From Owenia fusiformis (taxonomy: Eukaryota): a stretch of 64,000 nt of DNA. Of the stretch, positions 1 through 62,759 are shown piece by piece (position 1 is the first letter of the stretch; every line of letters starts with the position of its first letter). The notes below the pieces were generated by a model. The model ran no database searches, was not told where the DNA came from, and saw only the letters and a program-made list of their open reading frames with translations. Location of the stretch: NCBI GenBank assembly GCA_903813345.2, contig CAIIXF020000001.1, positions 9,052,001 through 9,116,000 of the forward strand, read 5' to 3'. A program made the translations under genes and the position numbers.

Positions 1-3000
1 AAAAGTACAAATAAAATTCCACCCACGACCAAGATGATGAAGGGGATATCCAGTTCCATCCACTGTAAACTCAGCAACTGTCTTGTGTCTTGCTTCCAAT
101 GAAAATACTGATTCTCTTCATGTTGTTGTAGTATCCTCCACTGTGTTGTAGTATAATTCAACTTTGATTATGCGAAATAATCTAAGTCAAACTATCGGCT
201 CTGTAAATGGCTATCTCCTGGATCCTCCTTAATGTGTTGTAGGATAATTCAACTTTAATTATATGAAATAATCAAAGTCAAACTATCGGCTCTGTAAATG
301 GCTATCTCTTGGATCCTCCTCACTGTGTTGTAGGATAATTCAACTTTAATTATATAAAATAATCAAAGTCAAACTATTGGCTCTGTAAATGGCTATCTCC
401 TGGATCCTCCTCAATGTGTTGTAGGATAATTCAACTTTAATTATATGAAATAATCAAAGTCCAACTATCAGCTCTGTAAATGGCTATCTCCTGGATCCTC
501 GTCACTGTGTTATAGGATAATTCAACTTTAATTATATGAAATAATCAAAGTCAAACTATCGGCTCTGTAAATGGCTATCTCCTGGATCCTCCTCACTGTG
601 TGGTAGGATAATTCAACTTTAATTATATAAAATAATCAAAGTCAAACTATTGGCTCTGTAAATGGCTATCTCCTGGATCCTCCTCAATGTGTTGTAGGAT
701 AATTCAACTTTAATTATATGAAATAATCAAAGTCAAACTATTGGCTCTGTAAATGGCTATCTCCTGGATCCTCCTCAATGTGTTGTAGGATAATTCAACT
801 TTAATTATATGAAATAATCAAAGTCAAACTATCGGCTCTGTAAATGGCTATCTCCTGGATCCTCCTCACTGTGTTGTAGGATAATTCAACTTTAATTATA
901 TGAAATAATCAAAGTCAAACTATCGGCTCTGTAAATGGCTATCTCCTGGATCCTCGTCAATGTGTTGTAGGATAATTCAACTTTAATTATATGAAATAAT
1001 CAAAGTCAAACTATTGGCTCTGTAAATGGCTATCTCCTGGATCCTCCTCACTGTGTTGTAGGATAATTCAACTTTAATTATATGAAATAATCAAAGTCAA
1101 ACTATCGGCTCTGTAAATGGCTATCTCCTGGATCCTCGTCAATGTGTTGTAGGATAATTCAACTTTAATTATATGAAATAATCAAAGTCAAACTATCGGC
1201 TCTGTAAATGGCTATCTCCTGGATCCTCCTCAATGTGTTGTAGTATAATTCAACTTTGATTATGCGAAATAATCTAAGTCAAACTATCGGCTCTGTAAAT
1301 GGCTATCTCCTGGATCCTCCTCACTGTGTTGTAGGATAATTCAACTTTAATTATATGAAATAATCAAAGTCAAACTATCGGCTCTGTAAATGGCTATCTC
1401 CTGGATCCTCGTCAATGTGTTGTAGGATAATTCAACTTTAATTATATGAAATAATCAAAGTCAAACTATCGGCTCTGTAAATGGCTATCTCCTGGATCCT
1501 CCTCAATGTGTTGTAGTATAATTCAACTTTAATTATATGAAATAATCAAAGTCAAACTATTGGCTCTGTAAATGGCTATCTCCTGGATCCTCCTCACTGT
1601 GTTGTAGGATAATTCAACTTTAATTATATGAAATAATCAAAGTCAAACTATCGGCTCTGTAAATGACTATCTCTTGGATCCTCCTCAATGTGTTGTAGTA
1701 TAATTCAACTTTAATTATATGAAATAATCAAAGTCAAACTATTGGCTCTGTAAATGGCTATCTCCTGGATCCTCCTCACTGTGTTGTAGGATAATTCAAC
1801 TTTAATTATATGAAATAATCAAAGTCAAACTATCGGCTCTGTAAATGGCTATCTCCTGGATCCTCCTCAATGTGTTGTAGGATAATTCAACTTTAATTAT
1901 ATGAAATAATCAAAGTCAAACTATCGGCTCTGTAAATGGCTATCTCTTGGATCCTCCTCACTGTGTTGTAGGATAATTCAACTTTAATTATATGAAATAA
2001 TCAAAGTCAAACTATCGGCTCTGTAAATGGCTATCTCCTGGATCCTCCTCACTGTGTTGTAGGATAATTCAACTTTAATTATATGAAATAATCAAAATCA
2101 AACTATCGGCTCTGTAAATGACTATCTCTTGGATCCTCCTCACTGTGTTGTAGGATAATTCAACTTTAATTATATGAAATAATCAAAGTCAAACTATCGG
2201 CTCTGTAAATGGCTATCTCCTGGATCCTCCTCAATGTGTTGTAGGATAATTCAACTTTAATTATATGAAATAATCAAAGTCAACTATCGGCTCTGTAAAT
2301 GGCTATCTCCTGGATCCTCCTCACTGTGTTGTAGGATAATTCAACTTTAATTATATGAAATAATCAAAGTCAAACTATCGGAATTGACAAAGTTTACGAA
2401 CGTCTTATATGGCATCAACTGCTAAGTACACAAACTTCCTTCACAATTAAGTAATCAGCCTACCTAAAAATATAGCATGCGCACAACAGCATAGGCAAAA
2501 ATATTACAAGTCAAAATATGTGCCCTTGAAAATAACTAAGTTCAGTTAATGTTGAGTTATACTGATATTGAAATATCCTAAGTTCAATATTTATTCTCCA
2601 AAAAACAACAAAGTCCAAAATAATGTTTCTCCAAATATTGACTAAGTTCAATAATTTCTATCTCAAAAATAATCAAAGTCCAATTTCATGTGTTCATGAA
2701 ATTGAACTGACAGAGCTCAGAAATCTAGTATAGGCTTGATGCTGCCTCCAAACACGGTACTGAATATTCCCTCTTGAGGTATCCTCTACACAAATACACG
2801 GGTAGATGGCCAAGTTATCATCTACAGAATCACGGTGTAGCAGTCTTCCCTCTCAGGTATCCTTCATCACAAGTAGATGTCCAAGTTATCATCCACTGAA
2901 CTAAGTGCAGCTATGTATCTCCTATCTGCCTCGGGAAATATTCAAAGTCCCAACAACTTTCTACTGAAAATTGTCAAAGTCCAAAAATATTTCCTTGAAA

Positions 3001-3785
3001 AATGACTAAGTCCAACTTCACATAAAAATATGAAATTGAAACGGAGCTCTGTCCCGAACGAAAGCTAGCTGTAATCTGCTGAGCGCTCTCAGCTTGCTGC
3101 TTATATACCCAGCAGCGGTGCGGCGATGACGTCATCCACTTGTTTACATCAAATTCCAACTTCATATGATTGCAAGCTAAATAACGCCAAAATTACTCCC
3201 AAACATGAAATATAAATGAATTTAAATTACAGAGACATGAAATATAACAACAATTATGCACAGAATGACATAATAAAGAAGCTTTAATGAGTTAAAGTTA
3301 TCCTCATGAATTTAATTCCAAAATGGCCTAGCGCCGCAATTCTCAACTTGATCTCTATATATCTCGAAAAGTATACGCTAATTCTATTCCAAAGTTACTC
3401 AATCAAAACTTGAGATCGTTAGTTATACTAATCTATCAAAACTATATAGAAATAAAGGCAAACTAACCTGTATTGGAACGATATGAGGGGACGATTCAAA
3501 ATGCCGCACTAAAAACGTTGGTGGTGGTTACTGGATGTCAACTACCCAAACGTGAAACGAAAACACTAATTATATTGAAAATATACGAAATGACCGGAAG
3601 TAGCCAGTTAAACATGATAAACAATTCACATACACAATTGTTAGACCAAGTAGGAATAAAAATAATTGCCCAAATATGTGTATAACTAGCAAGCTCAACT
3701 ATAACCGGGGAGATTGCTGATGAAGTGCTGAAAACCTCCAAATACTAAGACCATAAAATTTTTAAAAAAAAAATAATTTGTTACA
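1..3785 (-). repeat. 3' LTR (truncated by the window edge)
   Basis: Identical by eye to 13254..17038; directly preceded on the minus strand by the PPT. Confidence 0.95.
133..2381 (-). repeat. Tandem array of 25 x 91-bp hairpin units in the 3' LTR
   Basis: GGATCC recurs at 220, 311, 402...; hairpin starts run from 152 to 2335 = 24 x 91 minus one 1-bp deletion near 2281. Confidence 0.97.
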
Positions 3786-3797
3786 CTCCTCCCATCC
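3786..3797 (-). other. Polypurine tract (PPT)
   Basis: Minus-strand GGATGGGAGGAG abuts the TGTAAC start of the 3' LTR. Confidence 0.9.
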
Positions 3798-4173
3798 AAT
3801 GATTTTGGTGTTAACAACACCAAGTCCAAAGCACACAAAAAAATAACAAATTATTTTAAGAAAATATACTATATTATGACTGGTGAGGTAGTTTCACAGG
3901 CTAAATCATTATGAAAAATAAAAAAACTTCTCTTAAATTACTGTTCATAGAAAATATAAGTATATATATATATATCATCTTTATAAAGTCTCTGGAATAA
4001 GTTCAGTAACTTGTGATACTCTCATGGTAAACTGTCTCTTAACTATGTCTCTAACACTGCTGACACAGCAACTACTTATCTACATAATATACTTCTAAGA
4101 AACGTACTATATTCCATGAAAATCACTTAGTCTATCATAAAATTACACATCACATGTCTTCATGTTGATCAAG

Positions 4174-4490
4174 AATGTCTCTTTCGAAGTTATTCACTTT
4201 GTCTTTCACATATCACCTATCCTGGATCGTAGGTTTTATCGTAAATGTCTTTCCATGTTAATCACAGTCTCTCACGTATCACATACTCCATATAATCTGT
4301 ATGTTACTCATTAATGTCTTTCAGTGTTTATCACAGTCAATCACATATCATATACTATCTTTAATCCGTGTGTTGTTTATTAATATATATCCATGTTAAT
4401 TATGCAGTCTTTCATATAACACATACTCTTTAATCCACATGTTTTTCATAAATATCTTCCCATGTTAATTACACAGTCTTTCGCATATCT
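4174..4490. repeat. Degenerate ~68-70 bp tandem repeat (about 5 units) between the pol stop and the PPT
   Basis: Recurrent AATGTCTTTCCATGTTAATCACAGTCT..CACATATCACATACT near 4174, 4244, 4313, 4382 and 4451. Confidence 0.7.
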
Positions 4491-4765
4491 TTATAAAAAC
4501 TAAGACAGTCTTGTGTTCTACATTAATCACTGCTATCCTTATCAAATCACACTGCTACGTTCCAGATAATTTCTTAACATCTTTATGTCTTTATATCCTT
4601 AATAATCCATAAACTAAACTCCGATATAACAAAAGTAATCAGTCATACTTTAATGTCCTTTCCATCATATTTCTAGGTTTTTCAATCAATTGGTAACGTC
4701 CTTATCTATATTTCCAACAAAACGAACCCAACTCCTGTAACAACTAATACTGTAAAGGTTAACAC

Positions 4766-7700
4766 TTAAATTTTCAGACTGGCATACCTAGTGACCAGAG
4801 TTTCATCCTCGAGGACGCTTCCATCTCTGGCGTAGTAACGGAATCTTATCTCCATCTTGATAGGGTTGTTTACTGTGCCCTTCTTATAAGGCTCATACTC
4901 CTCTGTTTCGACGTCCTCCTCCTCTAACCTTTCTAATACTACTTTGGCTGTTTTGGTTATTTTCTTACTCTCATCCTCATCTGAACTGGTCTCAATAATG
5001 GCAACACTTTTTGGCTCTTTCTTTGACTTTTTTCTCGGGGCACTCTTTGGCTTGGGTTTCGGGGATTTTCCCTTATCTTTATTCAGAACATACTCCTTCC
5101 CTTCCCCAATTGGTATAACAATTCTACTGTCCCCCTGACTATCGACCTTCTTGGTCCCAGTATGTTTTCCCTCTTTCTCTTTAGGTTCTACCCTCTTCCC
5201 CCATACTATGGGTGACTTACTGGCCGCCGTTGTCACAGTGTTTGAAGCCATGGTGGTAGTCGTAGAGGGTAATGCAAGGGGATCCTTAGTAACACTCTGG
5301 GAACTCACAGAACTTGTTTTGGAGGTAACTACTGAAGTCTTGGGTACAGTGGTGCAAGGAACACTCGTGGGAGTAGGGCGTGTCCCAAGGGAAGTTACAG
5401 GGGCCTTAGAAGTGACAGGGGTTACTTCAGGTGACGTTGCATGATTCTTAGAGACAATAGGGGCTGGGGCAACTACCTCAGGGGCGCTCATTAGAGATGT
5501 AGGTGGGGCCCCTAGACTAGCAGAGGGTGGAGGGAATTGAGGTCTCTTGACATCAGAAGCGGATTGCCATGTTTGTAACAACCCACTAAGTTGCTCCATG
5601 AGATTAAATCCTGTGGGTTCCTGGACTGTCGCTATGCGTTCAACTGGGAGGGAGTCTTTACTAGAGGACCTCGAAGGCCTATCCCATCGGGCGAACTTAT
5701 CCACCTTACCACTATCACTACTATTCACTCTACGCTCCTTACTGTCTCTATCTTTACGATCATTGCTTCTGTCTCTATGGTAATCCCTACTATCTCTATC
5801 TTCTCTACTGTCTCTATCTCTACTACGGCCCCTACGATCATTGTATCCATACCGGAACCTATCACCACGGTCACCGAATCTTGGTCTTGGCCAATGGGAC
5901 ATCTTGTCTTCGACCCTGGAAGCACATAAAACAGTATTTAACTCATAATCACACAAGCGTTTTGGGGGTTTCCGGACCCTCCTTCCCCACCCTTTTGATT
6001 GGCCCATAGAATCTGTACCACCCTGTTCACCCTCAATCACTCTCTTATTTTTAGACTTACTACACCCTTTTTCCTGTGTTTCACTATCTGCATCAAGTAT
6101 CACTCCTTTTTCCCTCATTTGGACTTCTCCTCGGTCGCTAGGCTCACATTTTTCATCTCTCGGCTCAGTTTCATATAACTCCACATCCATCGGGTCTGTT
6201 TTCACCTCTTTATTCATTTTGGTCTCGGGTGGGGTCGGATCATCATCATGGAGTATTTTGTCCTCAGTTTCATCACTGTCCACTCTCATCTTTTCTCTCT
6301 GTTTCATCTCGGACGAATCCAAAGTCATTGGGTCGGATGGAATCTCCTCCAACTTCAGTTTGGTCTCATCCGAAGGTATTTTCCAGTCTTCTGGAAGTTG
6401 GCTCTCGTATGGTTTGAGTTGATCAAAATGGACCACTTTGGGTGTCCGCTTTCCCCACTCACAGATGCGATAGGTGACATCAGACATCTTCTGCAAAACC
6501 TGAAATGGACCTAACCAACGACATTGCAATTTAGGAGAAATACCTCTTTTCTTGTTATTGTTTAAGTACCATACTGCATCACCAGGATTATATCCTTTAC
6601 CAACCACACGTCGATCATAAACATCTCGTTGACGGATTGCTGACTTTTTTAACACCCTGCTTGCCCTTTCATGAGCATCTTTCAGGCCTTGTCGAAGTTC
6701 AATCACATAGTCTGTCTTCATTTCTTCACATTGTGGATCCTCTATCATCCAAGATACTGGAACAGATAATTCCCGCCCAAACATCATCATAGCTGGCGTT
6801 TCCCCGGTAGCATCATGTGTAGATGTGCGATACGCCATGAGAGCAAATGGAATCTGTACATCCCAGTCAGACTGATGGACCTCGGGTTGCAACAACTTAG
6901 CAATAGTGTCAAGTAAGGTCCTGTTATATCTTTCGACCATCCCGTCACTCTGTGGGTGGAAAGGGGTGGTTCGGGTCTTGTGTATCCCCATCAACTTGCA
7001 GACTTCTTGAAAAACATGAGATTCGAAGTTCCGACCCTGGTCGGAGTGCAAGTCTGCGGGAACTCCGAATCTACACACAACTTCTGTAACCAGCTTGTCT
7101 GCCACTGTAATGGCTTCTTGGTTAGGAAGGGCAAAGGCTTCTACCCACTTGGAAAAATAGTCAGCACACACCATGATCACCTTGTTCCCTCTAGACGTCT
7201 CGGGAAATGGTCCTAATATGTCCACTGCATACCTCTCCATGGGACTACTTACCCCTTGTATCTGCAATGGAGCTCTTCTGGCTCGCAGAGGTTTTCTTCT
7301 CTTTCCACACGTGTGACAGGTTCGCACGACCCCTCTGACATCAACCCTCTGTTCGAACCAATAAAATCTCTGCCTACTTTTCAAAAAGGTCCTACGGATT
7401 CCAAAATGCCCCGCTACCTTGTTAGTATGACACATTTCTAGAACAACCAGCTTCATCGGGGATGGTACAACAATTTGCAAATGACCATGCTCTCCACTTG
7501 CATCCTCCCATCTTTTACAAAGTACATCCTTGTGAATTTCTAGCTGGTTCCAAAGGTGCCAATAATGTTTGGTTGCTGGTGAGTTAAAACTGATTTTATC
7601 CCAAATAGGCCTAGTGTTAGAGGAACGCAACGCCTCTAATATGGGCTGTATCTCAGGGTCCTGTTCCTGTGCCTCTGCAATCTTTTCCAACGTCCAAGTT

Positions 7701-10700
7701 GGTTCAATAGCAACCATAGCAACTTGTAATTGAGACACATCTTCTTGTTGAGCTACCTCATCACAGTGAGAACACTGTGTACAGGGTCTCCGAGACATAA
7801 CATCGGCGTTGGCATGTCGTGGTCCAGGTCTGTACTCCAATTGAAAGTTGTATTCTTGAAGCACCTCTAACCATCGAGCCAATTGTCCCTCTGGGTTCTT
7901 AAAATTCGTCAACCATCTCAAGGATCCATGGTCTGAGCGAATGGTGAATCGTACACCATATAGATATTGACGAAAATACTTCGCGAAGTGCACCACAGCC
8001 AGGAGTTCCTTCCTGGTTACACAGTAGTTTAACTCTGGTCCATTTAGTCGGTGACTGGCATAATATATAACTCTTTCTTCGTTGTCTTGTATCTGGGATA
8101 AAACAGCGCCAACAGCTTCATGACTGGCATCTGTGTCCAATATGTAGGGACAATCATCCCTTGGAAAAGCCAAAATCGGTGCTGTAGTTAACCTTTCCTT
8201 TAAAGTAATGAAGGCTTCTTCAGCTTCAGAGTTCCACATAAACCTCTGGTTCTTCCGTGTTAACTTGTGCAAAGGTCCTGCTATTTCAGCAAAGTTTTTA
8301 ATGTGTCTCCTGTAATATGATGCTCCTCCCACAAACTGCCGGACCTGCTTGACAGTCTTTGGAGTGGGATATTGTAGCATAGCTTCCACTTTCTTGGGAT
8401 CGGGTGCAATGCCCTCCCCTGAAACTACATGCCCTAAGTAGTTTACCTGTGTCTGAAGTAGAGTACACTTCTTTGGTTTCAACTTCAATCCAGCTCTACG
8501 TAATCGCCCAAATACCCCTTCTAAACGTTTTAGAGCTTGTTCAAATGTAGGGGAGAAAGAAATGACGTCATCCAAGTAAACTAAGGACCCTTCCTTGTTC
8601 AATCCGCTAAGGACTTCTTCCATCAGTCTACAAAAAGTAGAGGGTGCGTTTGCCAAGCCAAATGGCATTACAGCCCATTGGAACAGTCCCCCTCTCACAG
8701 TAAATGCAGATTTTTCCTGTGCTTCTTTGTCAAGTAATATTTGCCAGTAACCACTGGCTAAATCCAGGGTGCTGAAATACTTTGATCCATTCATCATGTC
8801 TAACGTTTCGTCAATCCGGGGGATAGGAAAAGCATCTTTCTTGGTAACGCTATTGAGCTTCCTATAATCCACACAGAATCTCCAAGACCCGTCCTTTTTC
8901 TTTACTAATACAATGGGCGATGCCCATGGACTCTGTGATGGCTTAATTATACCTCGTCGCAACATGTCTTCAATGAGCTCATTCACTTCATCTTGTCGAC
9001 TTCTGGGCAACATTCGGTATCTTTGTCGAATAGGAGTAGTATCCCCTGTATCAATGTTGTGTTCTACTAATGTAGTCCTCCCCAAATCATCATCACTTTG
9101 GGCAAAGATATCCTTATTTCCTCTTAGTAGCTTCTGTAATTGATCTCTCTGGGTCTGATTAAGTCCACAAGAACTCCGTTCAAACAAGTCCTGCATAAAC
9201 TCTGGTAATGGCAAAAGTGAATCCTCAGTCCCTTCTGAACCTGTAAGCGGGCAAATTATTTCTTCAGTGACTTTATCGAGATCTACTTGATAGGTGTCCT
9301 CATCTACAGAGGTAATGACTCCTAATACAGCCCCTTCGGGAATGGATATTTCAAAGTCATTGTGATTCCTTACTTCCATATAACTACTTTGACTTGTATC
9401 AGCTAAGGTTGTCACAATTTCGAGTTCTTCTAAATCTTCGGCATCTAAATAAGGTTCAATAATACCCATCCCAGTGAGTGGCTCCTTCCATTGAACTTCA
9501 ATAAATTGACCAGAAAAGGCAGGTAAGATCACTTCATGGGCAGCATTATAACATAACGAAGATTGTCGTGGATCAAACATTTGCCTTAAATCTGATAATA
9601 TATCGTCCTCCAACTCTAAACTTTCTGGTGTATTAGGAGGCGTTTCTGGAATGATGATTGGAGTAGCTGGAGGGCTATCAGGAAATCGCATTCCTTGTTC
9701 AGGTGATGGAGTTTCAGGTACAAGTATATATTCCAACTGTTCCCTGGCATCTTCAAAATCCTGAGAATCCTCAGAGTCCTCCATACTCTCCTCAGGAATA
9801 GATGAAGGGCTATCGGGGAACTGGATCCTGGCTACAGGTGGGGTTTGTGTGGTACCTTTAAATTTTGCTCTCTCTTTACAACTGGATCCACTATCAACTG
9901 ATTCCACTTGTTTTCCACAAGCCTCAGAGATAAAATCATCTGCTTTTAGATCAGAACTGTAACTCTTATCCAATTTGGCCATTGACCCCACACTGCAACT
10001 TCGAGAATTGTCTGTTTCCCTCGAATTCAACTTCATTTCAGCATCCTCATAACTGTCTGTTGAAATATTGGGTTTGTCCTTGGTCCCAAAGCTAACTGTG
10101 CATCGGTGGTAGTCCACTATCGCGCCTGATGCAGAAAGATAGTCACTTCCCAAAATTCCTTCGAAGTCAATTGGGGCTACTACAATCTCCAACTCCTCTT
10201 CATGTCCATCGATACTCACCTTACCGAATATGGCTCCTAAAGTGGCCAATGGTTCCCCATCAGCCTGCAGCATAATATGAGTAGCTGGTATAAGTTTAGG
10301 ACGATAGCGAGGGTTCATCCTTCTGTAAACTTCACTGTTTACAATGGTGCGTGCAGCACCAGAGTCCAACAAAAAGGCTACCTCTGCACCACAAACATCA
10401 CCATGAGCGATAACTTTACGGACATCTTTTGGGGACTCATTCTTTGAAACATCTCTCCCAAAATGAGAGAGGAATTTAACTGGAGCGGCTTGGCGTGACT
10501 CAGCTTGTGCTTCTTTAGCTCGCTCCTCCATTCGCTTCCTGCTATAACACTCTGCAATAACATGACCTGGTTTATGGCAGAAAAAGCACTCCAATTTTCT
10601 GTATCGACTTCCCTTTATTTCGCAATTGGTCTTCGGATTATCACCATCAGACTGGATTTTCGTCTCCATCAGCTGAATCCTCTTCTCCAGATTTTTGCGG

Positions 10701-12559
10701 TCTTGTTCAGCATTTTTACGATCTTTTTCCAGGTTTTTTCGATCTTCCTCTTGCTTGTTGCCTAATTCCTCTAACAGCCTAGTGAGTTTCTTCAAATCAT
10801 CATCCTTGTCTTCTAAAGCATTAACACGGCTATATCTGGACTTTTGTCCTTTCCTCATTCTTTCCGATTCCACATAAGATTCTTCTCTCAGGGCAATTTC
10901 AATTGCCTTGTCTAACGTTGTGCATTCTTTATTATGTATTGCTCGGCGTATATCATCCTCCGCTATCGCCTGCTCAAAACTACGCCTTGCTAATCTATCC
11001 TGGGCTGACCTACTCATCTCAGGATATGCCAATGCTGTAAGTCGCCTGATATCCTGTCCTAAAGTCTGTAAAGATTCTTTTGGCTTCCTCATTCGCCCAA
11101 TTAGTTCGGCCTCATATACCTCTGCTTTTCCTCCAGGCCCATATCTTTTCTCCAAGGCTAAAACCAATTGATCATACGTATACCCAGCTTCCATTTCCAA
11201 CACGATTTGTTGGGCAGTCCCCCGCAGACTGGTAGCTAAGTACTCATTTTTCTCTTCTGTGGTCCAACTGTTGGCCTTAGCACATATTTCAAAATGGGCT
11301 CGATACTCCTGCCAAGGAGTAGTGCCATTATATGTCTCCGGCTTGATCCTATTCTTGGAATTGGACATCTGGTTAAACAATTTCATAAGGTCCATGGAAT
11401 CACCAGGTATATTATTATCAACCTCTCTTTTCCTCTCACTAGTAGAATCATCTCTTGAAGAACGCGTTTCAAATCTACCTTCAACTTGACGTATCCCGTT
11501 ATCACTCCCATATTCATGCTCCATCCGTTGACCTCCCATCCTGTGCATAGACTGGCCTCCTGAAGCACAAACGTCCTCTTGCTTACAGGCAGGATCTCGC
11601 TGGTCTCTACCAGTTGATTTCTGTGTAGGAGTGACATGAATTCTGTCTTGTCTTTCCAGTTTCCATGGTTTCATTCTTGATGGAGTAGGAGGTTCAGGTG
11701 TAAAACAATCTGTGTTCTGCGGACAGTGCCTCATGGGCAAAGGAGGTGACCGTTGTGCTCCCCTTCGAGCTCCACTTGGAGTTGCATACAAATCATTACC
11801 AATAGCATTCCCTGTATACAAAACACCATTGGACTTGGTCTCTGTACTAACTGCTACTGTAGTACTCTGTATATGCTGCAGGATCGCCTGCAACTGATGA
11901 TCTTGTTTCTCCTGTCTTTCCTGTTGTCTTTCTTCGCTTATTTGTCGTTTTTCTTCTCTTATTTGTTGTTGCTCTTCTCTAATTTGTTGCATATGTCTGT
12001 TCTCTTCCATTTGCTTTGCTATTAGAGTCATACTATGAGTCTGTATTTGTTGGGTCTCTTTAATATCATCCAACTGTTTCTGTTGCGCCTCTGTAACATT
12101 CCCAAAAACAGACATCTGATCTCGCAACTGACCTTCCACCATAGTTAACTCTTGTTTCACTATATCCTCTGTCTGGCTCTTTTTCAAAGGCCGATTCATA
12201 ACAGTAGAGGTTATTGGAAAATGTCTGGCAGTATTCCTTTTATCCAATCCCAGGGGATTTGCTGGAGTCTCTAGATTAGTCAATCCTCCTCCAGACCAAT
12301 ACCCTGTAGTTACATTGCTGGGTAAAACTCTTTTCTCAGTATCCACCTTTGGATCCTTTGATCTAGCGCCTGCACCAAGAGGGGCCTCCTTTGATGCATC
12401 AGAAAATGTGGCGCCATCTTTGTCCAATGGCTGAGTTGTATCATTAGCTCCCGGATTATTTATTTCCATTGGATTTGTCTTCATGAATACAGTAGTCTCC
12501 CCTTCAATCTCTATATCCTCATCATCCATTGGATAGGGAAGATTGGACTCTGGATCCAT
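4766..12559 (-). CDS. Gag-Pol polyprotein, 2597 aa: capsid, CCHC knuckle, aspartic protease, RT, RNase H, integrase with GPY/F motif, plus a long C-terminal extension
   Basis: PETYNGTTPWQEY..HFE capsid; CFFCHKPGHVIAEC; LLDSGA; YLDD; LDTDAS; H..H..CHTC; AVDILGP / SDQGRNF / GMVERYNR; WLGPFQV...VHFDQLKPY. Confidence 0.97.
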   Translation of the reverse strand: MDPESNLPYPMDDEDIEIEGETTVFMKTNPMEINNPGANDTTQPLDKDGATFSDASKEAPLGAGARSKDPKVDTEKRVLPSNVTTGYWSGGGLTNLETPANPLGLDKRNTARHFPITSTVMNRPLKKSQTEDIVKQELTMVEGQLRDQMSVFGNVTEAQQKQLDDIKETQQIQTHSMTLIAKQMEENRHMQQIREEQQQIREEKRQISEERQQERQEKQDHQLQAILQHIQSTTVAVSTETKSNGVLYTGNAIGNDLYATPSGARRGAQRSPPLPMRHCPQNTDCFTPEPPTPSRMKPWKLERQDRIHVTPTQKSTGRDQRDPACKQEDVCASGGQSMHRMGGQRMEHEYGSDNGIRQVEGRFETRSSRDDSTSERKREVDNNIPGDSMDLMKLFNQMSNSKNRIKPETYNGTTPWQEYRAHFEICAKANSWTTEEKNEYLATSLRGTAQQIVLEMEAGYTYDQLVLALEKRYGPGGKAEVYEAELIGRMRKPKESLQTLGQDIRRLTALAYPEMSRSAQDRLARRSFEQAIAEDDIRRAIHNKECTTLDKAIEIALREESYVESERMRKGQKSRYSRVNALEDKDDDLKKLTRLLEELGNKQEEDRKNLEKDRKNAEQDRKNLEKRIQLMETKIQSDGDNPKTNCEIKGSRYRKLECFFCHKPGHVIAECYSRKRMEERAKEAQAESRQAAPVKFLSHFGRDVSKNESPKDVRKVIAHGDVCGAEVAFLLDSGAARTIVNSEVYRRMNPRYRPKLIPATHIMLQADGEPLATLGAIFGKVSIDGHEEELEIVVAPIDFEGILGSDYLSASGAIVDYHRCTVSFGTKDKPNISTDSYEDAEMKLNSRETDNSRSCSVGSMAKLDKSYSSDLKADDFISEACGKQVESVDSGSSCKERAKFKGTTQTPPVARIQFPDSPSSIPEESMEDSEDSQDFEDAREQLEYILVPETPSPEQGMRFPDSPPATPIIIPETPPNTPESLELEDDILSDLRQMFDPRQSSLCYNAAHEVILPAFSGQFIEVQWKEPLTGMGIIEPYLDAEDLEELEIVTTLADTSQSSYMEVRNHNDFEISIPEGAVLGVITSVDEDTYQVDLDKVTEEIICPLTGSEGTEDSLLPLPEFMQDLFERSSCGLNQTQRDQLQKLLRGNKDIFAQSDDDLGRTTLVEHNIDTGDTTPIRQRYRMLPRSRQDEVNELIEDMLRRGIIKPSQSPWASPIVLVKKKDGSWRFCVDYRKLNSVTKKDAFPIPRIDETLDMMNGSKYFSTLDLASGYWQILLDKEAQEKSAFTVRGGLFQWAVMPFGLANAPSTFCRLMEEVLSGLNKEGSLVYLDDVISFSPTFEQALKRLEGVFGRLRRAGLKLKPKKCTLLQTQVNYLGHVVSGEGIAPDPKKVEAMLQYPTPKTVKQVRQFVGGASYYRRHIKNFAEIAGPLHKLTRKNQRFMWNSEAEEAFITLKERLTTAPILAFPRDDCPYILDTDASHEAVGAVLSQIQDNEERVIYYASHRLNGPELNYCVTRKELLAVVHFAKYFRQYLYGVRFTIRSDHGSLRWLTNFKNPEGQLARWLEVLQEYNFQLEYRPGPRHANADVMSRRPCTQCSHCDEVAQQEDVSQLQVAMVAIEPTWTLEKIAEAQEQDPEIQPILEALRSSNTRPIWDKISFNSPATKHYWHLWNQLEIHKDVLCKRWEDASGEHGHLQIVVPSPMKLVVLEMCHTNKVAGHFGIRRTFLKSRQRFYWFEQRVDVRGVVRTCHTCGKRRKPLRARRAPLQIQGVSSPMERYAVDILGPFPETSRGNKVIMVCADYFSKWVEAFALPNQEAITVADKLVTEVVCRFGVPADLHSDQGRNFESHVFQEVCKLMGIHKTRTTPFHPQSDGMVERYNRTLLDTIAKLLQPEVHQSDWDVQIPFALMAYRTSTHDATGETPAMMMFGRELSVPVSWMIEDPQCEEMKTDYVIELRQGLKDAHERASRVLKKSAIRQRDVYDRRVVGKGYNPGDAVWYLNNNKKRGISPKLQCRWLGPFQVLQKMSDVTYRICEWGKRTPKVVHFDQLKPYESQLPEDWKIPSDETKLKLEEIPSDPMTLDSSEMKQREKMRVDSDETEDKILHDDDPTPPETKMNKEVKTDPMDVELYETEPRDEKCEPSDRGEVQMREKGVILDADSETQEKGCSKSKNKRVIEGEQGGTDSMGQSKGWGRRVRKPPKRLCDYELNTVLCASRVEDKMSHWPRPRFGDRGDRFRYGYNDRRGRSRDRDSREDRDSRDYHRDRSNDRKDRDSKERRVNSSDSGKVDKFARWDRPSRSSSKDSLPVERIATVQEPTGFNLMEQLSGLLQTWQSASDVKRPQFPPPSASLGAPPTSLMSAPEVVAPAPIVSKNHATSPEVTPVTSKAPVTSLGTRPTPTSVPCTTVPKTSVVTSKTSSVSSQSVTKDPLALPSTTTTMASNTVTTAASKSPIVWGKRVEPKEKEGKHTGTKKVDSQGDSRIVIPIGEGKEYVLNKDKGKSPKPKPKSAPRKKSKKEPKSVAIIETSSDEDESKKITKTAKVVLERLEEEDVETEEYEPYKKGTVNNPIKMEIRFRYYARDGSVLEDETLVTRYASLKI

Positions 12560-12604
12560 CCTAAATCAGTATAATGCACCTCGGGCTTATATCTTCAGAC
12601 AATT

Positions 12605-12623
12605 AATCCCACCACTGCCACCA
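12605..12623 (-). other. Primer-binding site complementary to the tRNA-Leu 3' end
   Basis: Minus-strand TGGTGGCAGTGGTGGGATT is the complement of ...AATCCCACCACTGCCA-CCA, the metazoan tRNA-Leu(TAG/AAG)-type 3' end. Confidence 0.9.
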
Positions 12624-13105
12624 GTGTAACAGTTTGGCCTTTTTTGTGGATATGTGGTAGTGTGGCTAATAAAAAGACCACTGTTTAGTAAACGGTGTTT
12701 ACTTGTGGATTGCACGGCACACGTTAAATGTGCTTTGTCCCTAAAGAAATAAACAGAATATATAATTTTATATATATATAATACAAAACAATATATTGTG
12801 GCGTTTATAAGCCCAAATAAGATGTACATGCAATTTCAAATGTAATGTAAGAATATTACGGTGTTATTATTTCTCTTAAAACTCACAACTCAAAAGTCCA
12901 TATGAGCTAATAATAATTATCACTGATAAAATAATATCCAGAGTCCATATAAACTGATGATCACTATATAACACTGTTGTATTCCGAATATGCAAAGTTC
13001 ATGTAAATTGTACCACTTGTACGTCTTGTATTGTTATTGTATCTTGAACCTGGAATAGTAAGCTGAGCGTAACAAAGTCTTGTCTCCTAATTTTGGGAAG
13101 CAACT

Positions 13106-13312
13106 TTACACAAAATTCATAGTACTCATGCTGAAGCTTGGTGTGGATTTTAAAGCAGGGGTTGGCGTAGGGGGTATTGGAACTGCTGGAACAGGCGCTT
13201 CTTCGTTTTGAATCTTAATACACACCTGGGAGCATATGACTGACATCAGACATAAAAGTACAAATAAAATTCCACCCACGACCAAGATGATGAAGGGGAT
13301 ATCCAGTTCCAT
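13106..13312 (-). CDS. Putative 68-aa single-pass membrane protein encoded inside the LTR (the second copy starts at 59 and runs off the window)
   Basis: MELDIPFIILVVGGILFVLLCLMSVICSQVCIK...PVPAVPIPPTPTP: ~22-aa hydrophobic segment, three juxtamembrane Cys and a Pro-rich tail; more GC-rich than the surrounding LTR. Confidence 0.55.
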   Translation of the reverse strand: MELDIPFIILVVGGILFVLLCLMSVICSQVCIKIQNEEAPVPAVPIPPTPTPALKSTPSFSMSTMNFV

Positions 13313-13385
13313 CCACTGTAAACTCAGCAACTGTCTTGTGTCTTGCTTCCAATGAAAATACTGATTCTCTTCATGTTGTTGTAGT

Positions 13386-15634
13386 ATCCTCCACTGTGTT
13401 GTAGTATAATTCAACTTTGATTATGCGAAATAATCTAAGTCAAACTATCGGCTCTGTAAATGGCTATCTCCTGGATCCTCCTTAATGTGTTGTAGGATAA
13501 TTCAACTTTAATTATATGAAATAATCAAAGTCAAACTATCGGCTCTGTAAATGGCTATCTCTTGGATCCTCCTCACTGTGTTGTAGGATAATTCAACTTT
13601 AATTATATAAAATAATCAAAGTCAAACTATTGGCTCTGTAAATGGCTATCTCCTGGATCCTCCTCAATGTGTTGTAGGATAATTCAACTTTAATTATATG
13701 AAATAATCAAAGTCCAACTATCAGCTCTGTAAATGGCTATCTCCTGGATCCTCGTCACTGTGTTATAGGATAATTCAACTTTAATTATATGAAATAATCA
13801 AAGTCAAACTATCGGCTCTGTAAATGGCTATCTCCTGGATCCTCCTCACTGTGTGGTAGGATAATTCAACTTTAATTATATAAAATAATCAAAGTCAAAC
13901 TATTGGCTCTGTAAATGGCTATCTCCTGGATCCTCCTCAATGTGTTGTAGGATAATTCAACTTTAATTATATGAAATAATCAAAGTCAAACTATTGGCTC
14001 TGTAAATGGCTATCTCCTGGATCCTCCTCAATGTGTTGTAGGATAATTCAACTTTAATTATATGAAATAATCAAAGTCAAACTATCGGCTCTGTAAATGG
14101 CTATCTCCTGGATCCTCCTCACTGTGTTGTAGGATAATTCAACTTTAATTATATGAAATAATCAAAGTCAAACTATCGGCTCTGTAAATGGCTATCTCCT
14201 GGATCCTCGTCAATGTGTTGTAGGATAATTCAACTTTAATTATATGAAATAATCAAAGTCAAACTATTGGCTCTGTAAATGGCTATCTCCTGGATCCTCC
14301 TCACTGTGTTGTAGGATAATTCAACTTTAATTATATGAAATAATCAAAGTCAAACTATCGGCTCTGTAAATGGCTATCTCCTGGATCCTCGTCAATGTGT
14401 TGTAGGATAATTCAACTTTAATTATATGAAATAATCAAAGTCAAACTATCGGCTCTGTAAATGGCTATCTCCTGGATCCTCCTCAATGTGTTGTAGTATA
14501 ATTCAACTTTGATTATGCGAAATAATCTAAGTCAAACTATCGGCTCTGTAAATGGCTATCTCCTGGATCCTCCTCACTGTGTTGTAGGATAATTCAACTT
14601 TAATTATATGAAATAATCAAAGTCAAACTATCGGCTCTGTAAATGGCTATCTCCTGGATCCTCGTCAATGTGTTGTAGGATAATTCAACTTTAATTATAT
14701 GAAATAATCAAAGTCAAACTATCGGCTCTGTAAATGGCTATCTCCTGGATCCTCCTCAATGTGTTGTAGTATAATTCAACTTTAATTATATGAAATAATC
14801 AAAGTCAAACTATTGGCTCTGTAAATGGCTATCTCCTGGATCCTCCTCACTGTGTTGTAGGATAATTCAACTTTAATTATATGAAATAATCAAAGTCAAA
14901 CTATCGGCTCTGTAAATGACTATCTCTTGGATCCTCCTCAATGTGTTGTAGTATAATTCAACTTTAATTATATGAAATAATCAAAGTCAAACTATTGGCT
15001 CTGTAAATGGCTATCTCCTGGATCCTCCTCACTGTGTTGTAGGATAATTCAACTTTAATTATATGAAATAATCAAAGTCAAACTATCGGCTCTGTAAATG
15101 GCTATCTCCTGGATCCTCCTCAATGTGTTGTAGGATAATTCAACTTTAATTATATGAAATAATCAAAGTCAAACTATCGGCTCTGTAAATGGCTATCTCT
15201 TGGATCCTCCTCACTGTGTTGTAGGATAATTCAACTTTAATTATATGAAATAATCAAAGTCAAACTATCGGCTCTGTAAATGGCTATCTCCTGGATCCTC
15301 CTCACTGTGTTGTAGGATAATTCAACTTTAATTATATGAAATAATCAAAATCAAACTATCGGCTCTGTAAATGACTATCTCTTGGATCCTCCTCACTGTG
15401 TTGTAGGATAATTCAACTTTAATTATATGAAATAATCAAAGTCAAACTATCGGCTCTGTAAATGGCTATCTCCTGGATCCTCCTCAATGTGTTGTAGGAT
15501 AATTCAACTTTAATTATATGAAATAATCAAAGTCAACTATCGGCTCTGTAAATGGCTATCTCCTGGATCCTCCTCACTGTGTTGTAGGATAATTCAACTT
15601 TAATTATATGAAATAATCAAAGTCAAACTATCGG
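13386..15634 (-). repeat. Tandem array of 25 x 91-bp hairpin units in the 5' LTR
   Basis: Same units, same variant order and same 1-bp deletion as the left array. Confidence 0.97.
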
Positions 15635-16324
15635 AATTGACAAAGTTTACGAACGTCTTATATGGCATCAACTGCTAAGTACACAAACTTCCTTCACAAT
15701 TAAGTAATCAGCCTACCTAAAAATATAGCATGCGCACAACAGCATAGGCAAAAATATTACAAGTCAAAATATGTGCCCTTGAAAATAACTAAGTTCAGTT
15801 AATGTTGAGTTATACTGATATTGAAATATCCTAAGTTCAATATTTATTCTCCAAAAAACAACAAAGTCCAAAATAATGTTTCTCCAAATATTGACTAAGT
15901 TCAATAATTTCTATCTCAAAAATAATCAAAGTCCAATTTCATGTGTTCATGAAATTGAACTGACAGAGCTCAGAAATCTAGTATAGGCTTGATGCTGCCT
16001 CCAAACACGGTACTGAATATTCCCTCTTGAGGTATCCTCTACACAAATACACGGGTAGATGGCCAAGTTATCATCTACAGAATCACGGTGTAGCAGTCTT
16101 CCCTCTCAGGTATCCTTCATCACAAGTAGATGTCCAAGTTATCATCCACTGAACTAAGTGCAGCTATGTATCTCCTATCTGCCTCGGGAAATATTCAAAG
16201 TCCCAACAACTTTCTACTGAAAATTGTCAAAGTCCAAAAATATTTCCTTGAAAAATGACTAAGTCCAACTTCACATAAAAATATGAAATTGAAACGGAGC
16301 TCTGTCCCGAACGAAAGCTAGCTG

Positions 16325-16400
16325 TAATCTGCTGAGCGCTCTCAGCTTGCTGCTTATATACCCAGCAGCGGTGCGGCGATGACGTCATCCACTTGTTTAC
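16325..16400 (-). promoter_or_regulatory. Probable LTR core promoter (copy at 3072..3147)
   Basis: Minus-strand TATATAA at 16360..16354; perfect CRE palindrome GATGACGTCATC at 16378..16389; forkhead site TGTTTAC at 16394..16400. Confidence 0.65.
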
Positions 16401-18070
16401 ATCAAATTCCAACTTCATATGATTGCAAGCTAAATAACGCCAAAATTACTCCCAAACATGAAATATAAATGAATTTAAATTACAGAGACATGAAATATAA
16501 CAACAATTATGCACAGAATGACATAATAAAGAAGCTTTAATGAGTTAAAGTTATCCTCATGAATTTAATTCCAAAATGGCCTAGCGCCGCAATTCTCAAC
16601 TTGATCTCTATATATCTCGAAAAGTATACGCTAATTCTATTCCAAAGTTACTCAATCAAAACTTGAGATCGTTAGTTATACTAATCTATCAAAACTATAT
16701 AGAAATAAAGGCAAACTAACCTGTATTGGAACGATATGAGGGGACGATTCAAAATGCCGCACTAAAAACGTTGGTGGTGGTTACTGGATGTCAACTACCC
16801 AAACGTGAAACGAAAACACTAATTATATTGAAAATATACGAAATGACCGGAAGTAGCCAGTTAAACATGATAAACAATTCACATACACAATTGTTAGACC
16901 AAGTAGGAATAAAAATAATTGCCCAAATATGTGTATAACTAGCAAGCTCAACTATAACCGGGGAGATTGCTGATGAAGTGCTGAAAACCTCCAAATACTA
17001 AGACCATAAAATTTTTAAAAAAAAAATAATTTGTTACAGTCAGGAGTAGATAACTGGGCCAGACGGGTTTGGTTAGATTACAGCCTGTATGAAACTGAGT
17101 ATGCTGTTTGATTTGGTTTGCCAAATTGCCTGTATTTCATTAAATGATAACTGACTTACCGGATGCAAATACTCCGAGTGTCAAATATAACACACATGAG
17201 ACCACAAACACCCCTAGCACAGCTTTGAACCGAGACATCTCTGGTGTATTCTTTAGGTTTGTCGCAAACTGCTGAAAAAATTCTTGTTTATTTTTTCGAA
17301 ATTCATAAATTTAATGTTTTTCAATGCTTCCGTTCGGTCTATGACGTTTTACCTTCTAATGCACATTCACTGGCACCTCTTCTACATTTAACTCGTTTGG
17401 AATGTGATGATATGTGTTCTAAAGGCCTGTTTTATCATAAAATATGATGAAAATTTGATGAATCAGAAAATGACGAGGAACTCACCAAAATAATAACCTT
17501 ACAACGGGTGTTACTAAATACCACCTAGGTGTCCCCTTGGGCACCTGGATTTATAATTCCATTTTAAACCACGTACATATTTTATATATAGTATTTCCTT
17601 TGTCACATATTAACTTGACATATAATAGACTTGAAAAAATAATTTGTAGTCGAGAATATTGCAAAGAAGATTCGAAAATAAAATGTCAAAAGTTTTATTA
17701 TTAGAAAAATGGGCACCTGGAATTTTGTTCATATGTATGGTCACTTATTTATAGTAATAAAACACCATTTATGCTCAAGTGTGCATTTATATTTGAAATA
17801 TATATATTATTCTTACTTTAGTTGCCAAAATAGTGAATTTGTAGCATTTTAAAGTGAGCAAATAATGAAATAGATTTCTATTATCCTAACAAATGACTTT
17901 TTCGATAGGCCGCGCCTGGAGAGCCTTAAAATTTAAGGCTCTCTAGCCAAATGGGTTACCAAAATGCTAAAGAGCCTTAAATTTTAAGGTTCTTTAGCAT
18001 TTTGGCTAAAGAGCCTTAAATTTTAAGGCTCTTAAGGATTTTGATAGCCAATTCTGCTAGAGAGCCTTAA

Positions 18071-61400: not shown

Positions 61401-62759
61401 AATTTATTTAGCCTTTTGTGAGAAATTCTAGTGAAACCCCTGCAAGGGGTGCCCGTATTAAAAGGAAATGTTTCAATCATGGAAACTAAATGAAACCTCT
61501 TAAGATCATATATATTAGCGTGCTGTGTTTAATACATATTGTGAATCAATAAAGTCAAATAATTGAATTATGGAAGCCCATCATTGGGATTAATTAATAT
61601 TAAGATTTTATTATCGATAAATCGCAATACATTTTATAAAACTAAAATATCTAAAGGCTTTTAATAATATATGATAGGGGTATGTTTGACTCTTTGATCA
61701 TATGCCCTGATGTGTTTGGGTATTAGGAATTGTATGGTTGCAAAGTGGTACTCCATAATCCATAGAGATAAAGGTAATCAGGCTATATAAGTCTCAGGTG
61801 GAATTTTTAGAACTACTGCACAAACTAGGCACCTTATCATGAGACAATGGACTTTTGACTCTAGATAAAACAAAGGAATCGTTTTTCATAATTTTATATA
61901 AATTCATTACAAAATTGCTAGGTTTTCAGATTCAATGAAATTTTAATTGGATTGAAATCAACATTAATTGTAGAATAAGAGAACAATGAAATAATATTGA
62001 AAATACAGATTATCTTATCAACTCCGATGATTAATGAGGGTGATGATTTAGGTATAATATGTTAAAGAGTCTACTTCTTGTCTTGAATAACACTCAATCA
62101 ATCTTGGTTTAACAAACTAAATTATGTATACGCAATGTGATGTGATTGGTGAATAAATACATATCTGAGACAATGGTGGTTTATTTACATTGTTGAAAGT
62201 CAACATTATGATAACGTCATGTTAAGTGTGTCAAGGTAGAGAAACAATGTAGAAAACAACCTGATTCGTCAACTTAGAGAAAATTCAAACAATATTAAGA
62301 CTTATCATCTTTCATATGTAGCACCAACAAATGGATTTACATCACAAGAGACTGAGCTAGAATGTATATTAAGGGATGAAGGTGTAAATATCGAGGGATA
62401 TAGAACACAATGCCAGTAGATTAAATGACATTTACACTGACAACAGGGACTTATATAATTCTTGGAGGTGTCAGGTTGCAATTTCCTGAAACTACGGGAT
62501 TGTCTGATAGGAGTGTCATGAGCCTTAATGTAAAATCAGAGATCATACTCCTATACTATGATAATGATCAACATATTGGATCAAAATACAACAATGAACT
62601 GTGAAAGAGAATAAAGCAGGCATTAGGCTAATTGATAATACATGCCCAAGAGGACATATTTACAAACAACAATAAGAAAAATACACATACGCAGTTTAAA
62701 ATTGTACGTAAACTAGATTTCAAAACTTAAGGTAGGTGTTCATCATATTCAGAACAATT

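Follow-up and report, generated by a model that had tools for sequence, protein, structure and literature searches.

A probable third cistron, reached by a spliced RNA, at the env position of a Ty3/Gypsy retrotransposon of Owenia fusiformis

We analyzed a 64,000-nucleotide stretch of Owenia fusiformis DNA (the window; contig CAIIXF020000001.1, positions 9,052,001 to 9,116,000) and found that a Ty3/Gypsy element of ~17.7 kb on its minus strand carries an additional coding unit, ORF3 (4766..5902, minus strand; 378 aa plus stop codon), downstream of the integrase. ORF3 is probably a real third cistron at the env position of a young Ty3/Gypsy element, and its product would be a soluble protein that is disordered over most of its length. 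By a single splice, a sense RNA links a short 5' LTR exon to an acceptor immediately upstream of ORF3, and the RNA depth rises at this acceptor in all three RNA-seq runs. An earlier note on this DNA had pointed to the acceptor AG at 5917-5916, the in-frame ATG at 5902 and the 378 aa fused to integrase, and the sequence reads as it stated.

The host element carries a single gag-pol-ORF3 frame of 2597 aa (4766..12559, minus strand). Pfam matches on this ORF were Asp_protease_2 (residues 720-807), RVT_1 (1219-1378), RT_RNaseH (1471-1570), Integrase_H2C2 (1698-1756), rve (1772-1869) and Integrase_p58_C (2017-2050); on the minus strand of the window, the PR domain lies at 10133-10402, RT at 8426-8905, RNase H at 7850-8236 and IN at 6407-7468. 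The order PR-RT-RNase H-IN within one ORF is that of Ty3/Gypsy elements, and the element shows the further features of Metaviridae, namely direct LTRs, a primer-binding-site-like sequence after the 5' LTR and a polypurine tract before the 3' LTR. The 5' LTR (12625..17038, minus strand; 4414 bp) has the termini TGTAACA...TGTTACA, which form a terminal inverted repeat. The 3' LTR (1..3785, minus strand) is cut by the window start, its outer end lying ~628 bp outside, and is 100% identical to 13254-17038 over the 3785 comparable bases. The polypurine tract GGATGGGAGGAG (3786..3797, minus strand) is immediately 5' of the 3' LTR, and the primer-binding-site-like sequence TGGTGGCAGTGGTGGGATT (12605..12623, minus strand) is 2 nt past the end of the 5' LTR. 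The window contains no tRNA gene, and neither tblastn nor blastn detected a second copy of the element within it. With identical LTRs and an uninterrupted 2597-aa ORF, the element is apparently young, intact and active.

ORF3 starts with the ATG at 5902, runs through codons 5902..4769 and ends with a stop codon at 4768-4766, in the same frame as gag-pol, of which it forms the last 378 codons. This frame is continuous with integrase and contains no stop codon in between; each of the remaining five frames of 4766-5917 contains 8 to 51 stops. The integrase SH3-like C-terminal domain is separated from the ORF3 Met (residue 2220 of the 2597-aa ORF) by an acidic linker of 168 aa (5903..6406, minus strand), which contains GRRVRKPPKRLCDY (5945-5986), beginning at residue 2192; across the ORF3 Met the fused frame reads ...RVEDK-MSHW.... 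Upstream of the acceptor lies RRVRKPPKRLCDY, a putative integrase tail motif that the earlier note called usual for Gypsy elements. Around the acceptor and the start codon, the minus strand reads ...AATACTGTTTTATGTGCTTCCAG/GGTCGAAGACAAGATG, where the slash marks the boundary.

We examined stranded RNA-seq reads from three runs chosen by the same species label (X17, X18 and X19; ~6 to 12% of each run was read). Three reads of X18, with at least two start points, break at 5918, and their loose parts (median length 55 nt, agreement 1.0) include 30 bases identical to a piece of the 5' LTR that lies shortly before a splice donor. The 30-nt consensus of these loose ends, from which the junction of 16721 to 5915 was reconstructed, fits with 0 mismatches to 16724-16753 and its LTR twin 3471-3500 and nowhere else. 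The 5' splice site, CAG/GTTAGT, lies in the 5' LTR (16715..16723, minus strand), with exon 1 ending at 16721 (16721/16720); the 3' splice site (5916..5936, minus strand) comprises the pyrimidine-rich tract TACTGTTTTATGTGCTTCCAG and TTCCAG/G, with the exon starting at 5915 and a 3-nt CAG ambiguity relative to the read breaks at 5918. Both sites are canonical (GT at 16720-16719, AG at 5917-5916). The 10,805-nt intron (5916..16720, minus strand) spans most of the 5' LTR, the PBS, gag, PR, RT, RNase H, IN and the acidic linker, and the known 3' part of exon 1, given by the loose read parts, is 16721..16776 (minus strand). The coincidence of the read breaks with the acceptor shows that it is not simply a chance sequence pattern, and since the reads contain no further joints within the ORF3 exon region, the ORF3 exon itself is unspliced. 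The earlier note had proposed junction reads ending at 5915 as its test, and these three reads, from one of the three runs, agree with the prediction; loose ends were listed when shared by at least three reads, and among those listed X17 and X19 had none at 5918. Two other read breaks were considered as splice sites and dropped. A donor at 12625 coincides with the LTR end, where the loose read ends have heterogeneous flanks, and an acceptor at 13061 had a break that was not at an AG and a loose part made of the sequence of a 91-bp repeat; the break at 13061 more probably reflects a length variant of the LTR.

The depth of RNA reads was compared between 3750-5982 and 5983-12362, and the mean values were 3.14 versus 0.61 (X17), 2.47 versus 0.12 (X18) and 1.34 versus 0.09 (X19). 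In other words, although depths were low (0 to 6), sense depth past the acceptor exceeded that over gag-pol 5-fold, 20-fold and 14-fold, respectively, and in all three runs the step fell in the bin that contains the acceptor. The RNA is sense, as the first mate lies on the plus strand in nearly all pairs. Truncated copies of the element could contribute partly to this step. At a read threshold of 95%, the reads were 95-99% identical to the copy in the window, and their source is copies that differ from it by 1-5%. The transcribed variant runs on into the non-coding 3' region of the element, with differences at 4120, 4403, 4419 and 4497; a possible internal poly(A) site lies in this region, near the AATAAA at 4381. 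Within ORF3, most differences in the transcribed copies are synonymous: 7 of the 12 listed differences, compared with an expected fraction of 0.226 (P = 0.008, transition bias uncorrected), and all five listed in residues 268-375.

In the spliced RNA, the ATG at 5902 sits 13 nt past the junction, has an A at –3 and is preceded by an in-frame stop at a distance of 57 nt; no other ATG occurs between 16868 and this one, and the leader is clean. From this arrangement we infer that ribosomes start at this ATG and release a free protein with a computed mass of 42 kDa and a pI of 9.7. Its parts follow the order R/D/S-rich N-terminus, helix, P/T/S linker, Lys-rich run, acidic patch and amphipathic C-terminal β-hairpin. 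The tract RGRSRDRDSREDRDSRD, the helix sequence FNLMEQLSGLL and the Lys-rich run KPKPKSAPRKKSKK, which the earlier note had picked out, are all present in the translation. The N-terminal 90 aa (5633..5902, minus strand) contain 23 R, 16 D and 14 S and the motif KFARWD (5681-5698); a predicted helix at residues 101-117 (5552..5602, minus strand) includes the motif LMEQLS. At the C-terminus, residues 347-378 (PIKMEIRFRYYARDGSVLEDETLVTRYASLKI; 4769..4864, minus strand) form a predicted β-hairpin, which is mostly identical in all three sequences of the family described below. An AlphaFold2 model of the ORF3 protein was mostly disordered except for one helix and the two-stranded hairpin, where the mean pLDDT of 10-residue blocks was 91-93. 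The hairpin, the short β-like C-terminus to which the earlier note gave little weight, is both the best conserved and the best predicted part of the protein.

The protein does not resemble Env, as that note had argued: there is no hydrophobic segment in the whole tail (highest 19-residue Kyte-Doolittle mean, 0.85), and in place of a signal peptide and a transmembrane anchor the N-terminus is rich in R, D and S. Nor is it a chromodomain: Pfam searches of the polyprotein at E up to 0.01 and of the tail at E up to 10 returned no Chromo match. No Pfam match of any kind was found in residues 2052-2597 at E up to 10, and the ORF3 tail had no sequence match in the PDB at E up to 1. SR proteins combine an RRM with an RS tract; Pfam detected no RRM here, and the first 90 aa contain 7 RS or SR dipeptides versus 15 RD or DR, so that this region is RS-like by composition alone. 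A feature score of 0.78 to an SRRM2-like cluster of the ESM Atlas was at chance level. The same atlas contains the exact 378-aa sequence as its own record, and a collection of 15 billion sequences held no exact entry for either the 378-aa or the 2597-aa protein.

Sequence searches recovered only two relatives of ORF3, both unnamed proteins of Owenia fusiformis, with 36% and 47% identity over the matched stretches and 34-40% over the whole alignment. One of them, P0003, is a free-standing protein of 549 aa whose first Met is the equivalent of the ORF3 Met, which supports the view that ORF3 is a unit in its own right where env would lie. P0003 and ORF3 share K[FW]ARWD, LM[DE][EQ]LS, WGK and the hairpin in the same order, and the AlphaFold2 architectures of the two proteins are alike (hairpin block mean pLDDT in P0003, 82-83). 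ORF3 thus appears to belong to a small unnamed protein family, so far seen only in this annelid worm. Among proteins of 1428-4545 aa, a word-based search detected none that ends in a related tail; for those of 662-1428 aa, the coverage was a profile search with the 56 C-terminal residues (99-2000 aa) alone. By these sequence searches no relative was present in any other retroelement polyprotein, and of 149 pattern matches to related loci in metagenome contigs, 0 were confirmed. Our literature search found no paper on the ORF3 family or on an integrase-fused spliced ORF3, although an Owenia repeat annotation might name the element family.

Three other explanations were weighed. The tail might be only a long disordered extension of integrase, and the junction a rare cryptic splice without a protein of its own. 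The uninterrupted frame from IN into the tail fits this, as do the small number of junction reads and their confinement to X18, together with an X1 contig (5769-6585; 0 gaps, 1 substitution) that crosses the acceptor unspliced; moreover, the 14 codons from RLCDY to the ATG would be open by chance in ~1 in 6 cases, according to our estimate. Against it stand a 5- to 20-fold depth step in the acceptor bin of every run, canonical sites at both ends, an ATG directly behind the junction with a clean leader, a free-standing relative that begins at the equivalent Met and, in the word-based search, the lack of a related tail among the polyproteins of 1428-4545 aa. We regard a mere extension as improbable.

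The two further alternatives concern the source of the RNA. If the tail were a captured fragment of a host gene, with the Owenia proteins as host genes, a host paralogue could supply the extra depth; the sole relatives are indeed annotated as ordinary proteins in the genome annotation, other retroelement polyproteins contain none, and the reads are close to the window copy, not identical. Yet the transcribed variant extends into the non-coding 3' region and the junction reads hold LTR sequence, while the Owenia relatives, at 34-47% identity, are far below the 95% threshold for reads; a past capture would in any case be compatible with a present use as ORF3. This explanation is very unlikely. 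Alternatively, both the junction and the depth step could derive from DNA copies without the intron that are transcribed from their LTRs, being either elements with an internal deletion or spliced RNAs copied back into DNA. The differences of the reads from the window copy at several fixed places speak for this origin; against it, the X1 contigs show only the unspliced arrangement at 5769-6585, and the exact GT..AG boundaries imply that the junction arose, at whatever time, by splicing. We consider this origin very unlikely. A third cistron expressed by splicing is thus the reading that we prefer.

Extra ORFs are reportedly carried by plant Ty3/gypsy elements as well. In LTR retrotransposons, ORF3s are typically made from spliced messages (PMC5408684). 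On that general basis, ORF3 resembles the env of errantiviruses (Drosophila gypsy) in lying 3' of integrase in a Ty3/Gypsy element and in its expression from a singly spliced subgenomic RNA with a first exon at the 5' end, here seen as the junction of 16721 to 5915 together with the depth step. Unlike errantivirus env, ORF3 is mostly disordered, has no signal peptide, transmembrane anchor or Pfam match, and is in the pol frame without an intervening stop. The ORF3s of bdelloid rotifers are likewise lineage-restricted extra ORFs that lie 3' of pol and are separately transcribed, and they are reportedly captured ORFs common to diverse retroelement types (PMC5408684); in contrast, ORF3 here continues the pol frame as a fusion, and no domain could be detected in it.

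Another parallel is CERV, from the Cer1 element of Caenorhabditis elegans. CERV is a nuclear protein made from a spliced mRNA in a frame common with gag; it is required for export of the genomic RNA, its function depends on phosphorylation and, as with ORF3 so far, its relatives are confined to a narrow group of hosts (PMC10309623). Both are non-envelope accessory proteins encoded in the polyprotein frame of an element with a single gag-pol ORF and translated, in our case putatively, from a spliced mRNA (PMC10309623). However, CERV has a 5-exon mRNA, the gag frame and three folded domains (H, M and G) (PMC10309623), whereas ORF3 has one coding exon, forms an integrase tail and is almost wholly disordered; the two are likened by description, not by sequence. 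An export role is shown for CERV (PMC10309623) but is a guess for ORF3. The Rev, Rex and Rem proteins offer a further parallel, being small basic proteins that are translated from a spliced viral mRNA while the genomic RNA retains a long intron (the Rev mechanism as outlined in PMC10309623), an arrangement of RNAs found here; unlike theirs, the ORF3 mRNA is singly, not multiply, spliced, and there is no homology.

The predicted C-terminal hairpin may be comparable to the ET-binding tail of the MLV integrase, which also lies at the extreme C-terminus past an SH3-like domain and a disordered linker (bioRxiv 10.1101/2020.09.21.306696). In the MLV hairpin, a strand alternates hydrophobic and charged residues after a conserved Pro (LKIRL after Pro398; bioRxiv 10.1101/2020.09.21.306696), and the predicted ORF3 hairpin has a similar pattern (P-IKMEIRFR). 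The MLV tail of ~28 residues follows a linker of 10 residues, whereas the ORF3 hairpin is preceded by ~500 residues. P-IKMEIRFR is kept in all three sequences, one alternating position being Glu rather than basic, and there is no homology between the MLV tail and the ORF3 hairpin.

Because no stop separates integrase from ORF3, the 378 aa also form the end of Gag-Pol when the RNA is genomic and unspliced. ORF3 can thus exist in both fused and free forms: the unspliced RNA would yield Gag-Pol with ORF3 as an integrase tail, and the spliced LTR-to-ORF3 mRNA, translated from the ATG at 5902, would yield the free protein. We tentatively suggest, by analogy and at less than even odds, that ORF3 acts in the nucleus as a post-transcriptional regulator of the RNA of its own element, Rev- or CERV-like in kind. 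Its Arg-rich N-terminus would contact RNA or splicing and export factors, and a partner would be engaged through the β-hairpin. The nuclear location and RNA binding are suggested by composition; the KKSKK run, like the Arg-rich N-terminus, is a compositional hint only. A more speculative idea, which we consider rather unlikely, is that the hairpin lets the integrase tail dock on a host factor, as in MLV, and that the free form modulates this docking. Equally speculative is a dual use, in which ORF3 is an integrase tail and also an abundant free protein that acts either as a Rev/CERV-like nuclear switch or as a competitor of integrase. As a switch, free ORF3 would decide whether the RNA keeps its 10.8 kb intron and leaves the nucleus as genome; as a competitor, it would vie with integrase for the host factor bound by the shared hairpin.

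The extra genes of LTR retrotransposons reveal how such elements acquire virus-like regulation or infectivity. To our knowledge, very few non-envelope extra genes with expression evidence are known in animals, and CERV of Cer1 was the only functional example that our literature search returned. ORF3 adds a probable accessory protein without a known domain, which was predicted from sequence alone and then backed by junction reads. It also provides a caution for annotators, as retroelement ORF3s may account for some of the 'unnamed proteins' of annelid gene sets. In a spiralian animal, ORF3 opens the question of how the balance of spliced and genomic RNA is set across a 10.8 kb intron, and that of the docking partner of the conserved C-terminal hairpin on the integrase tail. 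If the dual use were true, ORF3 would constitute a self-regulating circuit with no described counterpart among Ty3/Gypsy elements other than those of nematodes.

On the minus strand of the window, a single ORF runs from 12559 to 4766 and encodes 2597 aa. Pfam matches along it comprise an aspartic protease (residues 720–809), a reverse transcriptase (1219–1378), an RNase H (1442–1570) and an integrase zinc-binding domain, catalytic core and SH3-like C-terminal domain (together 1698–2051), which is the Ty3/Gypsy order. The ORF belongs to an intact element of ~17.7 kb, whose LTR pair is 100% identical over the compared part (1–3785 versus 13254–17038); because the LTRs are identical, the element is very young. 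The LTR is 4414 bp long, from TGTAACA at 17038 to TGTTACA at 12625, and its 3΄ copy is cut off at the window start. A polypurine tract, GGATGGGAGGAG, adjoins the 3΄ LTR, and a primer-binding-like site initiated by TGG lies 2 nt after the 5΄ LTR. The inner LTR end was placed not by LTR–LTR comparison, but from the terminal inverted repeat, the primer-binding-like site and the divergence of records at 12625 into heterogeneous sequence (three reads of RNA-seq run X17, nine reads of run X19 and one contig of the set X1). We found no second copy within the 64-kb window. The long N-terminal part of the polyprotein (400 aa), ahead of the gag-like region, has no Pfam match and includes a Q/E/R-rich repetitive stretch, QQIREEQQQIREEKRQISEERQQERQEKQ (11900–12000, residues ~190–220). 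As for the host context (43178–47925 and 62736–63530), matches to rhodopsin-family 7TM receptors were obtained for three ORFs, of which 43178–43918 and 43849–44493 look like pieces of one gene; a fourth ORF matches an ANF_receptor ligand-binding region.

The earlier note had described the last 378 codons of this ORF as an env-position ORF3 with its own splice acceptor and start codon, and all of its sequence strings and coordinates proved correct, including the AG at 5917–5916 and the ATG at 5902. The 378-aa protein is in frame with the integrase with no stop between them, and the other five frames across the region contain 8 to 51 stops apiece. It is not Env-like, lacking a hydrophobic segment (hydropathy averaged over 19 residues peaks at 0.85), nor is the tail a chromodomain: no Pfam match was obtained for residues 2052–2597 even at E up to 10.

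We mapped raw reads of the stranded RNA-seq runs X17, X18 and X19, which carry the same species label (about 6–12% of each run), together with the X1 contigs, to positions 3750–13290. In usual stranded libraries, a first mate on the plus strand denotes RNA of the minus strand. Nearly all read pairs had the first mate on the plus strand, and the RNA is therefore that of the element's sense strand. The mean depths over 3750–5982 and 5983–12362 were 3.14 versus 0.61 in X17, 2.47 versus 0.12 in X18 and 1.34 versus 0.09 in X19 (ratios of 5, 20 and 14, respectively); these depths are low, and the reads come from copies differing from the window copy at several places. The step fell between the bins 5664–5982 and 5983–6301 in all three runs, with the higher depth downstream of the acceptor. 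Thus, RNA over the ORF3 exon exceeds gag-pol RNA.

Junction reads ending at 5915 had been predicted, and X18 bore this out with reads that stop at the acceptor, joined there to an upstream exon. Three reads from at least two start places fit the window to 5918 and then continue for a median of 55 further letters in perfect agreement. Since the donor lies outside the mapped stretch 3750–13290, the junction was put together from a 30-letter consensus, which occurs in the window only at 16724–16753 and in the LTR twin at 3471–3500, without mismatches. The donor in the LTR reads CGTTCCAATACAG followed by GTTAGT on the minus strand (GT at 16720–16719), and the acceptor reads GTGCTTCCAG followed by GGTCG. 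The reads break at 5918 instead of 5915 because CAG fits both sides of the junction. Accordingly, the junction joins 16721 to 5915 and removes an intron of 10,805 nt with canonical GT..AG ends. All three junction reads came from one of the three runs; X17 and X19 had none among the loose ends listed at a threshold of three reads. An X1 contig (5769–6585) runs across the acceptor unspliced and without gaps, and represents genomic DNA or else unspliced RNA. No joints were listed within 3750–13290, and so the ORF3 exon undergoes no further splicing. In the spliced RNA, the ATG at 5902 lies 13 nt past the junction with an A at –3, an in-frame TAG lies 57 nt upstream, and no other ATG precedes it back to 16868. 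The element thus makes a singly spliced sense RNA in which ORF3 is the first open reading frame.

In each LTR, a 91-bp unit is repeated in tandem 24.7 times, the copies being 96% alike (13387–15634, with a twin at ~134–2381). This array is downstream of the splice donor and hence intronic with respect to the ORF3 mRNA; it would also be part of the 5΄ leader of the genomic RNA if that RNA starts at the same promoter. At 13061, three to four reads in each of the three runs stop fitting and continue into 91-bp repeat sequence (1–3 mismatches to array units). This break is not at an AG; more probably than a splice, it reflects copies whose LTRs differ in length. RNA depth peaks at 13001–13290 (11, 6.5 and 14) and declines from there to the LTR end at 12625, a region with TATAAA at 12809 and 12772. 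The signal over 12625–13290 could reflect a second promoter or else the poly(A) region of the 3΄ LTR; with a sole promoter upstream of 16753, R plus U5 would reach the unusual length of ~4 kb. The minus strand has an AATAAA at 4381, and depth drops below ~4388 in X17 and X19, not in X18; some of the ORF3 transcripts may be polyadenylated within 4069–4400, ahead of the 3΄ LTR. Over 12363–13000 (LTR end and gag start), some pairs had a minus-strand first mate (depth 0.1–0.9), and some antisense RNA is therefore present there.

We compared the transcribed copies with the window copy, counting among the differences listed. In ORF3, 7 of 12 differences were synonymous, compared with an expected 22.6% of random single changes (P = 0.008), and in gag-pol 11 of 17 (P = 0.0001); sites within a copy are linked to each other, and the P values carry no correction for transition bias. 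All five ORF3 replacements listed fell within the P/T/S linker (residues 126–160), and all five differences listed in residues 268–375 were silent. Even so, the trend is clear: the frame is under constraint, most strongly toward its C-terminal end.

The free form of ORF3 would have a computed mass of 42 kDa and a pI of 9.7. Its residues 1–90 are R/D/S-rich (23 R, 16 D and 14 S; 15 RD/DR versus 7 RS/SR dipeptides), with KFARWD at 69. There follow a predicted helix (101–117, pLDDT ~66), a P/T/S-rich stretch (121–230), a Lys-rich stretch (231–300), an acidic stretch (301–345) and a predicted beta-hairpin (347–378; strands 348–357 and 363–373; block-mean pLDDT 91–93), which would be amphipathic because hydrophobic and charged residues alternate (IKMEIRFRY). 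The mean pLDDT is 47, and the protein outside the confident parts is predicted to be disordered.

When 1.84 billion representatives were scanned in full by HMMER with the 545-aa tail, two proteins were returned at E up to 0.001, both of them from the annelid Owenia fusiformis and unnamed. Searching by words with the 378 aa recovered one of these two, and a profile built on the last 56 aa, run against every protein of 99–2000 aa, recovered both and nothing more. One (P0002) is a 208-aa partial protein with the hairpin at its end. The other (P0003) is a complete, free-standing protein of 549 aa that begins with Met, is just as rich in R/S/D at its N-terminus and matches the unit bounded by the acceptor and ATG. 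Its motifs follow the same order, K[FW]ARWD (54), LM[DE][EQ]LS (220), WGK (276) and hairpin (518), and its AF2 model has the ORF3 architecture, with a helix over LMDELS and a hairpin block-mean pLDDT of 82–83. A word-based search among proteins of 1428–4545 aa turned up no long polyprotein whose tail is related, and no relation of ORF3 to any Pfam family (E up to 10) or PDB chain (sequence search, E up to 1) was detectable. The ESM Atlas holds a record with the exact 378-aa sequence, which may derive from the same genome.

Established retroelement biology suggests that the spliced RNA would be translated into free ORF3 protein, and that the unspliced RNA, having no stop before 4766, would yield the same sequence as a Gag-Pol tail. 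In general, env-position ORF3s come from a spliced subgenomic message (PMC5408684), and ORF3 here resembles them in this origin. However, unlike an envelope protein it has neither signal peptide nor TM segment, and unlike an SR protein it has no RRM. The closest functional precedent is Cer1 of C. elegans, a single-ORF Ty3/Gypsy element in which a spliced mRNA encodes nuclear CERV, which shares its frame with gag and is needed for export of unspliced RNA (PMC10309623); the likeness is one of description rather than of homology comparison, and the architecture differs. Drawing on this precedent, we tentatively suggest, as our leading reading, that ORF3 might act in the nucleus on RNA or on splicing/export factors, to which its Arg-rich, RS/RD-like N-terminus and Lys-rich run would point. 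An export-type factor would be useful here, as the genomic RNA must escape removal of the 10.8 kb intron. A rather improbable alternative, by analogy with the MLV integrase tail, starts from the hairpin as the sole part of ORF3 both well conserved and well predicted: the hairpin would dock the integrase tail on a host factor, and the free form could modulate this docking.

The observation in the earlier note is real. A literature search of main texts returned no description of the ORF3 family, nor of any ORF3 that is spliced separately while fused to integrase. Accessory ORF3s from spliced RNA were known; the ORF3 protein itself and its proposed dual fused/free arrangement were not, and what is unusual in ORF3 is that it is co-linear and in frame with the integrase. 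ORF3 is a third cistron of this young, annelid-type Gypsy element and represents a new family of narrow distribution.
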